Notes: generated by a model from the letters alone, not told the origin. Positions 3,681-7,705 are shown, numbered from the stretch's first letter. The stretch: DNA of 64,000 nucleotides from an uncultured Gammaproteobacteria bacterium (GCA_963729605.1 CAVSNY010000007.1:1056001-1120000), one strand, 5' to 3'. Program-made: numbers and translations.

Positions 3681-3709
3681 TTGTGGCGCGTCCCCGCGCG
3701 TTCTATGAT
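3681..3709 (+). promoter_or_regulatory. Putative sigma70 promoter facing the leader ORF and cassette array
   Basis: TTGTGG-17 nt-TATGAT; GGGGGGAG RBS before the ATG at 3756. Confidence 0.5.
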
Positions 3710-3755
3710 CGTGGCCAAATAACCCAATAAATACCGCGTATCTCGAGGGGGGAGT

Positions 3756-4100
3756 ATGTTGGTCGGCACCGTCCGCAGGCCCGGCGCCAAGGGCACTCGC
3801 AAATTCGTCGAACACTACGGCGACCGCTTGATTTGCGTGCGTTACCGTCACGACCCTGCCCAGGGCCGCCGTGACAAGACGGCGGAACCCATCGTAGAAG
3901 CAAGCCGGTGGTGTCCCTCGTCCGTATCCGTGTCTGCCCTCCTCGTGTGTCGCCGTGCGTATAGGCATATATGAAAAGACCTGCAACCCAAAACAACGCC
4001 TGGGCGGTATATAGCGAGCCGCGGAACGTCAGTGGCATACCCCGAATTCGAAGTGCGTAAGCTGGGCTTGGCGGGCTGTATTGTGAGGAAAGATGAAGGT
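3756..4100 (+). pseudogene. Decayed small conserved hypothetical protein at the head of the cassette array
   Basis: Intact N-terminus MLVGTVRRPGAKGTRKFVEHYGDRLICVRYRHD; protein-like continuation in shifted frames (VAVRIGIYE, LGGI*RAAERQW, EVRKLGLAGCIV) indicates frameshifts and an internal stop. Confidence 0.6.
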
Positions 4101-4164
4101 CTAGAGGTGCTGGATATGAGGCCTTGGGTACTGAATATAGGTCCGTGGTAGTACCGGTTGGAAA

Positions 4165-4194
4165 AGGCACTGTGGGGTCGAATTTAAGTTAGCC
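4165..4194 (+). other. attI-like recombination site (first cassette boundary GTTAGCC)
   Basis: GTTRRRY core at 4188-4194 after an AT-rich stretch (GTCGAATTTAA), no complementary RYYYAAC upstream, immediately followed by RBS GAGGAGG and the first cassette ORF. Confidence 0.55.
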
Positions 4195-4214
4195 AACAAA
4201 GAGGAGGTTGCGGA

Positions 4215-4598
4215 ATGGCTACGACAGACTGGGACTTGGCGGGTACTTTTCAGGCGCGATTTCCGCATACTTTTAACGCGCTGCAGAAGCTCGTTATGGC
4301 CATGGCCGCTTATAAAAAGAATCGTGGGAAGAAAACGATGCTCGGGAAGGACAAAGGGTTGGATTCATACAAGAAGTTCGAAAGCGTTCTTCGGGATACG
4401 TTGTTAGCCATGGTCGTGGATGGGGCAGTGGAAAGAAACGTAAAGGCGAAAGAGTGCCGCGAAACTCTTACGGAGATGGTCGCGGCTTTTGCGGAAGTAT
4501 TTCCAAATTGGCAGGACGCGTACTCATTTGCGGACGAATATTTCATAAAGAACGCTGTCACTGCCGAAGATAGAATTCGAGACATGTTGCGCCAGTAA
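4215..4598 (+). CDS. Hypothetical protein (cassette 1, ORF A)
   Basis: 127-aa AT-rich ORF with strong RBS about 20 nt after the GTTAGCC core; no recognisable motif. Confidence 0.75.
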   Translation: MATTDWDLAGTFQARFPHTFNALQKLVMAMAAYKKNRGKKTMLGKDKGLDSYKKFESVLRDTLLAMVVDGAVERNVKAKECRETLTEMVAAFAEVFPNWQDAYSFADEYFIKNAVTAEDRIRDMLRQ

Positions 4599-4880
4599 CC
4601 TGGCGACTTCTGTGAGGGTATAACGATGGGGCTATGGGACTCAGTATTTGGAAAGAAGGTTACGATTCAAGGTCGTGATGAAAACGGCAAACCATTCGAA
4701 ACCAAGGTATCTGAAAAGCAGTTCAAGAAATGGGAGCAGGAAGGTCTTCTGAGTAAAACAGAGGTAGTTGAAGTACACGTCCTCGATCCGAAAGGTAGTT
4801 ACACCACACATTGGAAAGTTGGTGAGGACATTTCCGCCGAAGTGGTCGAAAAATTCAAGAACCCGGCCACCATGTAGTGG

Positions 4881-5720
4881 TCAAGTCATTTTGGCCACGG
4901 GTTTATAGGCACTCCAGTACCGTTGCTCAGCCGCATTGGGCGTCAGTCCGGCGTTATGTGCATGCGGCCTGAACTGACTGTAATACCCGATCACATACTG
5001 CGTGATGCGCTGTTTCGCTTCGTCGAACGATGCGTAACCGATCTCGGGGATCCATTCCGTTTTCAGGCTTCTGAAGAAGCGCTCCACTGGACTGTTGTCC
5101 CAGCAGTTGCCGCGCCGACTCATGCTCTGCACCATCTGATACCGCCACAGCTGCTGCCGGAACGCCAGGCTGGTGTACTGGCAACCTTGATCGGAATGGA
5201 ATAGAACACCTTTCGGTTCTCCGCGCGACTCATAAGCCATCGTCAGCGCCTTCTTTGCCAGTTCGCTGTCAGCTGCCAACGACAACGCCCATCCCACCGG
5301 TCGCCGCGCGAACAGATCCAGGACCAGCGCCAGATACGCCCAACGCCGACCGGTCCAGACGTAGGTGATGTCGCCCGTCCAAACCGTGTTCGGCGCATCG
5401 ACATCGAACTGCCGATCCAGCCGGTTGGGGATGTTCAGGTGCGGCTGCTCGGCTTTCTTGTAGCGGTGCGTCGGCTGTTGGCTGCTCACCAGCCCCAGCA
5501 CCTGCATGCGCCGGCCGGCACGGTAACGGCTTAGGGGCAGCCCTTCCGCCGTGAGCATCTTCGCAATCGTCCGCGCCCCAGCCGAGCCGTTGCTAAGCGT
5601 ATGCGCGTCTTTCACGCGTTCGCGCAGCCGTCGCTCCTCAGGTGCAAGCGTCTTGGGCCTGTCGTGCCAGGCCCGGTAACTGCTGCGGTGAACGCCAAAC
5701 AGGCTGCACAGTTGCTGCAC
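4881..5720 (-). CDS. IS3 transposase OrfB (DDE integrase core)
   Basis: [31 protein letters not shown] motifs. Confidence 0.95.
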
Positions 5721-5746
5721 CGGGTAACTCTCTTGAAGCCGCTGGA

Positions 5747-6055
5747 CTAGCGTGAACTGCTCAACGAGTCCGACATCAAGAGAGCTGTAGCCTTTTTTAG
5801 AATTTCTTTCTCCATCTCGACTCGGCGCAGCTGCTTTTCCAGCTCCTGAATGCGGCGCTGGTCCGGCGTCATCGCGGTCGCTTTCGGCGTTTGCCCTCGC
5901 CGCTCCTGCCGCAGCTGGCGCACCCAGTTCTCCATCGAAGTCTTGCTGACGCCCATCGCGTCACACGCCGCCTTGACGGTGTAGCCCTGGTCGACCACCA
6001 GACCCGCCGCCTCCAACCGGAATTCCGGACTGAACGTTTTTCTCTTCTTCGCCAT
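5747..6055 (-). CDS. IS3 transposase OrfA (HTH)
   Basis: [29 protein letters not shown], typical HTH plus leucine zipper. Confidence 0.95.
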
Positions 6056-6235
6056 TTTGTCACCTGTCTTCGTTTGCGGGTAATAATATCACCCAGAATC
6101 AGGTGGCCAAATCGACTATGCCACTACACCAACAAACTTTACGCATTTACTGTGTACGAAGCAGGGGAACCAAAGACCAGCGTGCTTCAATACGCCAAGT
6201 GGCTGGAAATTAAAGTGGCAATGGGAGAGTGAATT

Positions 6236-6323
6236 GTCTAATAAGCACAAGCACGCAGACCGAAAAAAGCGCCACTCGTTCCTCTCTCTGCTTTTTTCGG
6301 CCGGTGATGCGCGGCGGTTAGGC
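6236..6323 (+). other. attC site 1 (R'' degenerate)
   Basis: GTCTAAT ... inner inverted repeat CCGAAAAAAGC/GCTTTTTTCGG ... GTTAGGC, located between the stop of one ORF and the RBS of the next. Confidence 0.8.
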
Positions 6324-6344
6324 TAACAAAAATGGGGGCGTGAA

Positions 6345-6797
6345 ATGATTGAACGTTTGAATCTAAAAATATTCATAATTGGTGCTGTCTTTCTAATTGT
6401 TGGTTGCGCATCTACTGCACGTCTCTATCCTAGCAACGATCTGGCTTCAAGCATTGGCATGCTTAAAGCTACATATATGGATTATGGTGTTGGTGGCGGA
6501 AAAATTACGATAAATATGCCTGATGGAGAAACCCTGACTGGGGAATACTCTACTGCGGATACAAGTTCCTATGGTTTTGGTAATGTCTATGCCAGTGTGT
6601 ATGGAACGAATGGCAGTGCGTTTGGTTCCGGGACATCGACAATGACTGCGGTTTCTGGTTCAAGTCCAGGAGTGGCTTCATTGTATGGTGACAAAGGAAC
6701 ATCTATGACCTGTGAATATTTTGTGAACAATTGGACTGGAAAAGGGGCAGGTGCATGCAAGTCATCCTCGGGCGCTCTTTTCAAGCTGCATTTCTAG
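6345..6797 (+). CDS. Putative lipoprotein (cassette 2)
   Basis: Signal peptide with lipobox LIVGC; AT-rich; bounded by GTTAGGC and GCCTAAC. Confidence 0.8.
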   Translation: MIERLNLKIFIIGAVFLIVGCASTARLYPSNDLASSIGMLKATYMDYGVGGGKITINMPDGETLTGEYSTADTSSYGFGNVYASVYGTNGSAFGSGTSTMTAVSGSSPGVASLYGDKGTSMTCEYFVNNWTGKGAGACKSSSGALFKLHF

Positions 6798-6807
6798 ATG
6801 TACCGCG

Positions 6808-6913
6808 GCCTAACAAGGCAAATTCACGCGGACACATTTCCGCAACGCTCGTTTGTGGCGAATGCCACAAGCCTCCTGTTGCTACAATGTGCCGGTGATT
6901 TGCGGCGTTAGGC
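6808..6913 (+). other. attC site 2 (canonical)
   Basis: R'' GCCTAAC (6808-6814) exactly complementary to R' GTTAGGC (6907-6913); L boxes GCAAATTCAC/GTGATTTGC with one extrahelical base; internal hairpin TTGTGGC/GCCACAA. Confidence 0.92.
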
Positions 6914-6919
6914 TTCACC

Positions 6920-7675
6920 ATGAGCAACGGCGGTATCTATCTCATCATCCATAAGCCCACGGGCAAGGTATACGTTGGTCAAGCCATTAGCTACTTGCGC
7001 CGATGGAAAAAACATAGCGAGGATCTCGATTCAGGACTGCATCATAATTACAAGCTGCAATCGCTGTGGACTCGTGATGGCCCATCAGCTTTTGAATTCA
7101 AGAAGCTACGCTTGCTTCCTGATGGGTTAACCGCACTGGAACGCCAACGCTGGCTAGTCCGAATGGAGAGAGAATCTTGGGACTTCTATCGAAAGAGCGA
7201 TCTGGCACTGAATATTGCATCACCAGAAATCGTCGAAACACCAGACGCGTTGGCCGAATACAAATTGGAACGTAAGAACACAACAAGTGAATTAACCGCT
7301 CACATTAAATCACTAAAACCACAAATTGAAGAAGCCCAGCTTAACTTTCGCACGAAATCGCGTGACGAATACGAATTCCGAATGGCGTTTGAAAAAGCGT
7401 GGGCACTGCTAAAGAGAAATTCTGGCTGGCGCGGCTTCCTATTTGGTAAAACCACATCAACACCTGTGGAGATATTGAAGAGAGAAGCCGAACGCCGTGC
7501 AGCCGAACTTATTAACGCGGAACTAGCGACGCGCCATGCTAACGATCTACTTCAGTCACTTGAGAAGCAGCGAAAGGAGCTGTATCGCTCCTATCCCGGC
7601 AACCAAGACCGTCGGATACGCGGAACCGATCTCTTCTTATTTACCCGTCAGAAAAATAAGACCACTATACGGTAA
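6920..7675 (+). CDS. GIY-YIG nuclease domain protein with helical/coiled-coil C-terminus (cassette 3)
   Basis: GGIYLI..KVYVGQA..RRWKKH..HHNYKLQ..E motifs; starts 7 nt after attC2. Confidence 0.85.
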   Translation: MSNGGIYLIIHKPTGKVYVGQAISYLRRWKKHSEDLDSGLHHNYKLQSLWTRDGPSAFEFKKLRLLPDGLTALERQRWLVRMERESWDFYRKSDLALNIASPEIVETPDALAEYKLERKNTTSELTAHIKSLKPQIEEAQLNFRTKSRDEYEFRMAFEKAWALLKRNSGWRGFLFGKTTSTPVEILKREAERRAAELINAELATRHANDLLQSLEKQRKELYRSYPGNQDRRIRGTDLFLFTRQKNKTTIR

Positions 7676-7705
7676 AATGAAGCGGCGCGCTCAAAACCCA
7701 AGCTC

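Follow-up and report, generated by a model that had tools for sequence, protein, structure and literature searches.

A small-protein gene and clustered palindromes at the head of integron cassette arrays, and a probable decayed counterpart in a gammaproteobacterial genome

We analysed a 64,000-nucleotide stretch of DNA from an uncultured Gammaproteobacteria bacterium (GCA_963729605.1 CAVSNY010000007.1:1056001-1120000; hereafter the window, with positions counted from its first letter), in which a short array of gene cassettes without an adjacent integron integrase gene (intI) lies downstream of a pdh gene. The region 3681-7750 is very probably a decayed member of a recurrent integron platform, which is headed by a gene for a protein of about 110 amino acids (aa) and, in related loci, continues with clustered 18-bp palindromes and an attI-like junction with the cassettes. 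The array-head gene and its palindromes suggest an undescribed part of the integron gene-capture system. In the explanation we favour, the small protein would bind the palindromes and organise the adjacent attI site for an integron integrase. We give this explanation as a whole, the decayed platform and the inferred attI organiser together, a probability of about 0.5.

Homologues of the small protein were collected from one genome per species using two patterns only (ICVRYRYD and [YH][KN]T[VI]E[LIR]I[VI]E), yielding 238 pattern matches, of which 179 were confirmed and the best 80 kept (L007-L086). The phylum labels of these loci were Chloroflexota, Acidobacteriota, Rokubacteria/Methylomirabilota, Pseudomonadota, Thermodesulfobacteriota, Nitrospirota, Fibrobacterota, Bacteroidota and KSB1; most of the loci derive from metagenome-assembled genomes (MAGs), in which mis-binning and incompleteness are possible. 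attC sites were sought with a covariance model (R1) of our own, which was trained on 24 sites, sites of the same loci among them, and misses divergent attC types. At E<=0.01, R1 identified 82 attC sites downstream of the family gene on the same strand, two downstream on the opposite strand and none upstream, after 14 minus-strand re-hits (E<=0.01) coinciding with stronger plus-strand matches and all matches with E>0.01, including the sole upstream one (L060, E 0.14), were left out. A crude symmetric scan likewise gave 47 sites in 314 kb downstream vs three in 562 kb upstream. The preliminary description of the window had stated that this family recurs just ahead of GTTRRRY cassette arrays, and the link proved strong. 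Both opposite-strand matches were in one locus (L078, 10943-13062, E<=2e-7), suggesting an inverted array segment.

We considered whether the small gene is itself a cassette and rejected this: no attC precedes it at E<=0.01 in the 562 kb of upstream sequence, and the nearest downstream attC lies at least 360 bp past the gene, with another open reading frame (ORF) between. In 22 of the 80 loci the contig ended less than 500 bp past the gene, vs four in which it ended less than 500 bp upstream of it, which is typical of a variable or repeated region beginning right after the gene. Two further family-bearing contigs (L208 and L209, on G041:C31 and G050:C47) stop 187 bp and 842 bp past it.

The upstream neighbour of the family gene exceeded the TIGR02249 integron integrase cut-off in eight of ten sampled loci, and a hidden Markov model (HMM) built from those eight integrases was used to score adjacency in the 75 loci with at least 1.5 kb of upstream sequence. 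A full intI was adjacent in 30 loci (22 divergent, one divergent but split, five on the same strand at a spacing of 0-88 bp, and two convergent), and 45 loci had none. The integrase-less architecture proposed in the preliminary description is therefore recurrent but not exclusive. That description had also proposed scoring homologues for downstream attC arrays; among loci with at least 2 kb of downstream sequence, one or more attC sites were found in 8 of 14 intI-linked and 16 of 29 intI-less loci. The 38 loci with good flanks on both sides comprised eight with intI and attC, six with intI only, 15 with attC only and nine with neither. The family gene thus marks where cassette arrays begin, whether or not intI is present. 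In the two convergent loci (L028 and L037, Oscillochloris-type Chloroflexota), 55-60 bp separate the ends of the gene and intI, no palindromes lie 3' of the gene, and no attC was found in up to 10 kb.

The reverse sample was drawn from metagenomic intI loci (599 pattern matches, 588 confirmed) by keeping the best 80, that is, those most similar to a family-linked IntI; 57 of these had at least 600 bp on the attI side. A family gene stood beside intI in two of the 80, complete and on the same strand in L108, and divergent and cut by the contig end in L146. A plasmid collection of 72,556 records gave one partial family match, and this near absence indicates that the family concerns sedentary environmental integrons and not clinical resistance integrons. 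The match is a 105-aa hypothetical protein of Trichlorobacter lovleyi (L189 6001-6159; 290-kb plasmid pIAE1, NZ_CP058410.1) that resembles the N-terminal half only (residues 3-55, 57% identity), and its gene is situated among small hypothetical genes and two tyrosine recombinases.

Within 260 bp past the stop codons of the family genes, we found 2-7 copies of lineage-specific 18-bp palindromes, such as GTGTCTAATAGTAGACAC, GCATCTAATATTAGATGC, GTTTCTATATGTAGAAAC and CTGCCTAATAGTAGGCAG, with the general form GnnTCTA-N4-TAGAnnC, followed by a core of the form ..(C/T)TAAT..N3-5..GTTRRRY. One or more generic 18-bp palindromes also occurred in 190 of 390 control windows, a poor discriminator, and we therefore relied on the count of the palindrome core CTA-N4-TAG. 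It occurred 62 times in 18.3 kb near the stop codon; the remaining 834 kb of these loci contained 31 copies, which makes it 91-fold enriched near the stop. The excess was restricted to the interval from -100 to +200 of the stop codon, and none was found between -1500 and -300 except one at -900. The exact core was present at least once in 37 and at least twice in 17 of 77 loci, and variants, for example ATCC-N6-GGAT or CTG-N4-GAG, occurred in other loci. At least two 18-bp palindromes were present in 47 of 78 zones vs 57 of the 390 control windows. The last palindrome often lay 20-34 nt from the crossover GTT, abutting the core (16 of 39 loci, by a noisy measure).

Three observations link the palindromes with the small protein and not with IntI. 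Half-site types track the protein clades in a quick tree, although kin share labels, and the match is therefore consistent with co-evolution without proving it. In G050, a MAG, only one intI accompanies three family genes, and two of these precede palindromes of distinct types (CTGCCTA and GTGTCTA). The reverse sample of 80 intI loci contained a single CTA-N4-TAG cluster, directly 3' of the one complete family gene. On this sequence evidence, the small protein probably binds the palindromes.

Comparison of related loci indicated where cassettes change. Homology ended at, or a few bases past, the GTT in 14 of 19 pairs representing nine independent lineages, and in 11 of these 14 pairs both members lacked an adjacent intI; similarity in the other five pairs ended earlier (in repeats or in the gene) or slightly later. 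The GTT past the palindromes behaves as a live junction at which cassette content changes between related loci, with or without intI. The family gene is also under purifying selection in intI-less lineages, with a median ratio of nonsynonymous to synonymous substitution rates (dN/dS) of 0.14 (28 pairs) and 0.18 (15 pairs) in two clades made up entirely of intI-less loci. Ten genomes with intI-less family-led arrays were searched for integrases: five encode a full intI elsewhere and five, including the 9.5-Mb single-chromosome record that carries L045, encode none. Service by an integrase in trans, as proposed in the preliminary description, is accordingly possible in five of the ten.

A word-indexed search recovered nine proteins of the family, including the window's own, and intact members were 110-118 aa long. 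Conserved positions follow the pattern RRPG..GT.....YGDRLICVRYRYD....R.KT.E.IVE..W.P in the N-terminal half and V..R....E...Q.....AGG.W......W......LGL..RIV in the C-terminal half. A profile of five intact members (A2), searched against 1.84 billion sequences, matched 2709 cluster representatives at E<=1e-3, 1447 at E<=1e-10 and 58 at E<=1e-30, and every source name encountered for family members was 'hypothetical protein'. In a scan of 85 members, no NCBIfam or PHROG family and no Pfam model of the whole protein was found. Pfam DUF5710 (PF18974) matched the C-terminal half of 14 members at E<=0.01 and 29 at E<=5 (best 2.1e-5), and Arm-DNA-bind_5 (PF17293) matched three at E<=5. A sequence search of solved structures with the family profile returned a chance-level match alone (E 0.58). 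An internal duplication was rejected after an hhalign comparison of the two halves (probability 5.6%).

In the explanation we favour, the platform begins with a promoter and the small-protein gene, continues with several 18-bp palindromes and an attI core (an L-box-like ..AAT.. and GTTRRRY), and ends in the cassettes. The protein would be a sequence-specific DNA-binding protein that sits as a dimer on the palindromes, and the resulting nucleoprotein structure beside the crossover site would mark and organise attI for an integron integrase encoded next to it or elsewhere in the genome. One integrase could in this way serve several arrays, which would explain intI-less arrays that still turn over. 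An architectural or accessory role is favoured because several sites abut the crossover core, intI occurs in three orientations relative to the gene, and some genomes have several platforms per integrase. That the main role of the protein lies in attI recombination rather than in transcription is nonetheless a tentative assignment, which we place slightly below even odds on the sequence patterns at hand.

Several results weigh against this explanation. The loci are in the majority from MAGs, and 23 of the 82 attC matches are R1 training sites. The C-terminal half matches only DUF5710, weakly, and DUF5710 is without known function; the N-terminal half, when aligned with 18 arm-binding domain sequences by hhalign, scored a probability of 1.7% (P 0.029), so that its likeness to such a domain is not significant. 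The family gene accompanied only two of the 80 sampled intI loci, indicating that integrons in general do not need it, and its intactness in the five of ten genomes without any intI fits an integrase-independent role better. Strong sigma-70-like promoters stand right after the stop codon in some Chloroflexota, with palindromes at or after them in an operator-like arrangement. The pair of 18-mers at the corresponding site in the window is degenerate (13/18 identical) and weak evidence on its own.

The main rival is that the protein is a transcription factor, with the palindromes as operators that control transcription into the promoterless cassettes and with no direct part in recombination; it might act as gatekeeper or repressor of a promoter like the cassette promoter Pc, or stop transcripts of its own gene from running on downstream. 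With the palindromes placed between the gene and the first cassette, the arrangement resembles a repressor gene preceding the operon it controls, and promoter-like sites facing the cassettes numbered 32 vs 19.4 expected from shuffles, although this enrichment is modest and was present in 23 of 78 loci only. Just past the stop codon, L007 (from Oscillochloris trichoides DG6), L008, L009 and L011 match 10-12 of 12 promoter positions; L020 has such a match at a greater distance. Purifying selection where intI is not adjacent, and the intact gene in the five of ten genomes without a detected intI, would also suit a regulator. Against it, apart from the single core at -900, palindromes are absent from the gene's upstream side and from the spacer between intI and the gene, no recognisable sensor or ligand domain is present within the ~110 aa, the last palindrome commonly lies close to the crossover GTT by the noisy measure given above, and the gene occurs beside intI in three orientations, including the operon-like spacing of the same-strand pairs. 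We consider regulation as the main function somewhat unlikely.

The genus to which the window belongs bears on a simpler account, in which the array is an ordinary chromosomal integron that lost intI by deletion, leaving a cluster of attC sites lacking integron integrase (CALIN), and the small ORF is a fixed first cassette or an uninvolved neighbour. The window's genome (G000) is 94.5% complete in seven contigs, and a second genome of the same genus (G003) is 75% complete; the family profile matched three of 41 related genomes, G000 included. G003 is 91.6% identical to the window over 455-4181 and has an intact family gene with no intI between the terminator and the gene. Homology between the two breaks at 4181-4187, after which both read GTTAG, and the cassettes beyond are unrelated; this agrees with the attI-like GTTAGCC that had been read from the window sequence. 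Similarity resumes at 7764-7938 (86%) and 11283-12166 (95%). Five other relatives (G001, G002, G004, G005 and G008) are 83-93% identical to the window up to the pdh stop codon only. Two of these, G001 and G002, belong to the same genus, lack the family gene and have a minus-strand intI directly after pdh, which in G001 is followed by ..TGTCTAATACACTGTTAGGC and then by a cassette with an attC of 57.8 bits at its end. The pdh site is thus an integron site throughout the genus, of the intI type in G001 and G002 and of the intI-less small-gene type in G000 and G003. The integrase of G001 at this site (L187 1494-2912, G001:C15, minus strand) has 472 aa, about 155 of which form an N-terminal extension preceding the TIGR02249 region, and the open frame of the G002 integrase is likewise long (428 aa).

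An ordinary intI at this position in close relatives, named beforehand as evidence that would speak against a distinct architecture, is therefore present in G001 and G002, but G003 is intI-less with an intact gene. The loss account also gains from the deletion by which G000 lost its other intI, from the window gene being a pseudogene with an insertion sequence (IS) in the array, and from the general frequency of CALINs, 95% of which are without nearby intI pseudogenes according to Cury et al. 2016 (PMC4889954). Against it stand the absence of any upstream attC at E<=0.01 in the 80 loci and of an attC on either side of the gene, the lack of an intI fragment between terminator and gene in the window, the same junction with an intact gene in G003, the retention of position, palindromes and junction across at least nine phylum-level labels, and the purifying selection on the gene. 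The proposal that this is a distinct architecture and not a simple intI deletion draws on that selection in intI-less clades and on the G003 platform, and is qualified by the congeners with ordinary intI. We regard plain loss as very improbable.

Another alternative takes the small gene as a linked passenger of unrelated function. At attI1, IntI1 also binds direct repeats that lie upstream of the core, and the palindromes could be such accessory sites of IntI itself, like DR1 and DR2 of attI1. They hold the equivalent position beside the L-box and GTTRRRY core, but 78 of the 80 sampled intI loci lack the family gene and have no CTA-N4-TAG cluster, the single cluster following the complete family gene; the palindromes persist at intI-less loci and in genomes without a detected intI, and the half-site type tracks the small-protein clade, with two types in the single-intI MAG, so that this alternative is very doubtful.

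Within G000 the system is not working: the gene is broken, the array contains an IS, and intI survives as a remnant only. The genome-wide search for intI called for in the preliminary description found no TIGR02249 match over the cut-off in this 94.5% complete genome, and the sole trace was a remnant of about 250 bp beside lysA (L100 ~16216-16522, G000:C7:396000-414000), orthologous to the intact intI-lysA pair of G001 (L095). The reduction of intI to this remnant points to loss of the integrase, and both arrays look inactive; that the window copy of the family gene is decaying follows from the lack of an intact intI. Near the lysA remnant are a 35-bit attC (L100 14963-15034, minus strand) and cassette-like minus-strand ORFs, and L100 is a second decayed integron in G000. 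Degenerate family copies were also found in G003 (L090/L092, G003:C110:13459-13743, two TGA stops) and in G005 (L089/L093, G005:C105:3832-4125, four stops), with no attC match nearby.

A broader extension of the favoured explanation is that the family gene and its palindromes form a portable attI module independent of a cis-encoded integrase, with a dedicated DNA-binding protein licensing the cassette insertion site, which we regard as rather doubtful. Were it true, one integrase, resident or transient, would serve several arrays per genome, and many 'orphan' CALINs would be functional satellite platforms and not wreckage; its footprints would be G050, with three platforms and one intI, and cassette turnover at intI-less heads.

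Integrons are usually described as consisting of intI, attI and Pc plus host factors. Like a classical integron, the platform has a TIGR02249 integrase next door in 30 of 75 family loci, a core of the form ..(C/T)TAAT..N3-5..GTTRRRY, and cassettes that come next in the orientation of the attC top strand, and the classical layout itself (intI without the family gene) occupies the same pdh site in G001 and G002. It differs in an extra conserved gene between intI and attI, in accessory repeats that are 18-bp palindromes co-occurring with the small gene and not with intI, and in its persistence without intI. Other tyrosine recombinases use accessory complexes, lambda Int with Xis and IHF, and XerCD with PepA and ArgR at cer and psi. 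By analogy, several small-protein sites may be arranged within about 250 bp on one side of the core; here, in contrast, the sites are palindromes, the partner integrase may be absent from the locus, and no sequence relationship was detected. The likeness to DUF5710 is confined to the pattern ..AGG.W......W.L.Y....LGL..RIV of the C-terminal half, matched weakly in 29 of 85 members at E<=5; most members are unmatched, and the N-terminal half is without any model.

CALINs are defined as attC clusters in which no integron integrase is present (Cury et al. 2016, PMC4889954). The window, with two attC sites (the second weak) and no intI, falls under this definition: its cassettes are attC-bounded, an IS lies in the array, and intI is absent from the flanks and not intact in the genome; half of the comparable genomes (five of ten) likewise have no intI. 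In that paper, the definition includes no head structure and the origin of CALINs is stated as unclear, whereas here a conserved gene, palindromes and an attI-like core form a head, at which cassettes exchange and which is also present in complete integrons. We conclude that the platform is an integron or CALIN with an extra conserved component and a distinct attI architecture; judged from its sequence context, the component is probably DNA-binding.

The portions available of a review of integron host factors (PMC8946536) name no integron-encoded accessory protein, and propose that attI x attC recombination in Vibrio involves a further factor of unknown identity. According to PMC4889954, most integrons have no known attI site, and where the many integrase-less arrays come from is left open. 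Our search of the literature, which did not extend to supplements or subscription journals, found neither the gene nor the palindromes described, and a prior mention is possible. The gene and palindromes provide a sequence signature for finding attI and the true array head in environmental genomes, and are a module common to complete integrons and integrase-less arrays in many phyla. The small protein is a testable candidate for an accessory or regulatory integron component, and offers a concrete hypothesis for how integrase-less arrays could stay dynamic.

The features of the window are listed in Table 1. The IntI HMM detected no integron-integrase-like frame among six-frame ORFs of window 1-12000 and no intI remnant between the terminator and the small gene (window 3670-4190), confirming the earlier statement that no recombinase lies between the pdh terminator and the array. 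A minus-strand ORF (3703-4170) overlaps the pseudogene in antisense and gave no IntI signal in this search. The array thus lacks the intI of a complete integron and retains same-strand attC-bounded cassettes (one site of 49.6 bits, the other of 9.2 bits). GC content is 0.45-0.50 in the cassettes vs 0.60-0.68 in the flanks.

Table 1 Features of the pdh-site platform and array in the window (strand + or -; a dot where no strand applies).
Feature	Position	Strand	Details
pdh E2/E3-type fusion ORF	351-3623	+	1090 aa; from ORF list; conserved left flank of platform
Intrinsic-terminator-like hairpin 3' of pdh	3645-3666	+	9-pair stem, then T run
Promoter-like sequence, weak	3681-3709	+	TTGTGG-17-TATGAT, read from sequence
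Pseudogene of array-head small-protein family	3756-4150	+	N-terminal half intact (ORF 3756-3974, 72 aa)
Two adjacent 18-mers	4106-4123, 4127-4144	+	13/18 identical; site where relatives carry palindromes
attI-like core, left cassette junction	4188-4194	+	GTTAGCC; G003 homology ends here
Cassette 1	4195-6323	+	ORF 4215-4598 (127 aa) and interrupted ORF 4626-4877; weak attC at end
IS3-family element inside cassette 1	4873-6128	-	orfA 5747-6055, orfB 4881-5720; Pfam HTH_Tnp_1, rve
Weak, imperfect attC	6236-6323	+	R'' GTCTAAT, R' GTTAGGC; model R1 9.2 bits
Cassette 2	6324-6913	+	ORF 6345-6797 (150 aa, lipoprotein-like N-terminus) and canonical attC
Canonical attC	6808-6913	+	R1 49.6 bits, E 7e-11
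Cassette 3	6914-7699	+	ORF 6920-7675 (251 aa), GIY-YIG nuclease domain
Right boundary of variable region	7700-7938	.	REP-like repeat 7700-7748 and 175-bp repeat 7764-7938

The small ORF of the preliminary description is present with the translation given there, but it is the frameshifted remnant of a gene for about 110 aa, and the window copy has no intact reading frame of that length. The family profile matched window 3756-4088 (77.2 bits, E 2.2e-21, profile positions 1-109 of 111) with one internal stop. Compared with the intact G003 orthologue, the copy has about seven one-base deletions from ~3937 to ~4101; its frame is lost after about residue 52, and the C-terminal half is readable only via two frame changes and one stop. 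The deletions are read as decay and not assembly error, as the neighbouring long pdh ORF is intact. The N-terminal half is 59-90% identical to its relatives, and its ORF had no Pfam or NCBIfam match. A repeat search of window 4060-4200 found none, and no perfect palindrome is present in the window copy. The promoter proposed in the preliminary description is present as a sequence, identical in G003 by alignment with the window, but its -35 element agrees with the consensus at three of six positions and a promoter scan returned nothing at this place.

The array comprises three cassette-like units, two attC sites and one IS. The two ORFs of cassette 1 are 27 bp apart with no attC between, and are therefore assigned to one cassette; neither had a Pfam or NCBIfam match. 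The second is split by the IS3-family element, which has terminal inverted repeats at 4873-4909 and 6092-6128, and resumes beyond it, extending to about 6232. The weak attC at the end of this cassette (E 0.32 in 9 kb, R1 with filters off) has a 3' arm like that of the canonical attC of cassette 2, which was one of the 24 R1 training sites and was recovered independently by the crude scan. The ORF of cassette 3 matched Pfam GIY-YIG (E 1.2e-6) and, below cut-off, TIGR01453 (E 9e-11), and R1 recognised no attC of its own. A third attC considered at 7680-7748 was rejected, as it had no R1 support and the stretch is a repetitive extragenic palindromic (REP)-like repeat with at least ten copies in the genome. 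Of the three attC-separated cassettes in the preliminary description, the three same-strand AT-rich units stand, with two supported attC sites, one of them weak, and the REP-like repeat in place of the third.

The 175-bp element at the right boundary has internal inverted repeats and at least seven copies in G000, and is flanked by inverted REP-like repeats of 45-48 bp, present in at least ten copies. It lies at the distal array end in both G000 and G003, with copies also near the second array (C7 ~409-410 kb), and may be a small mobile element favouring array ends or attC sites. On the left, the translation of the pdh ORF suggests a fusion in which two lipoyl domains are joined to an acyltransferase core of the E2 type and a flavoprotein resembling E3 dihydrolipoamide dehydrogenase.

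Beyond the array, a minus-strand ORF (8070-9464, 464 aa) without a Pfam match precedes a second IS3-family element on the minus strand (9584-10812; orfB 9584-10435, orfA 10489-10812), and G003 has about 850 bp of different sequence in this interval. A weak attC-model match at 11182-11238 (15.8 bits, E 0.006 in 9 kb), just before an ORF at 11231-11656 within which G003 similarity restarts (window 11283), could be a relic recombination site or chance.

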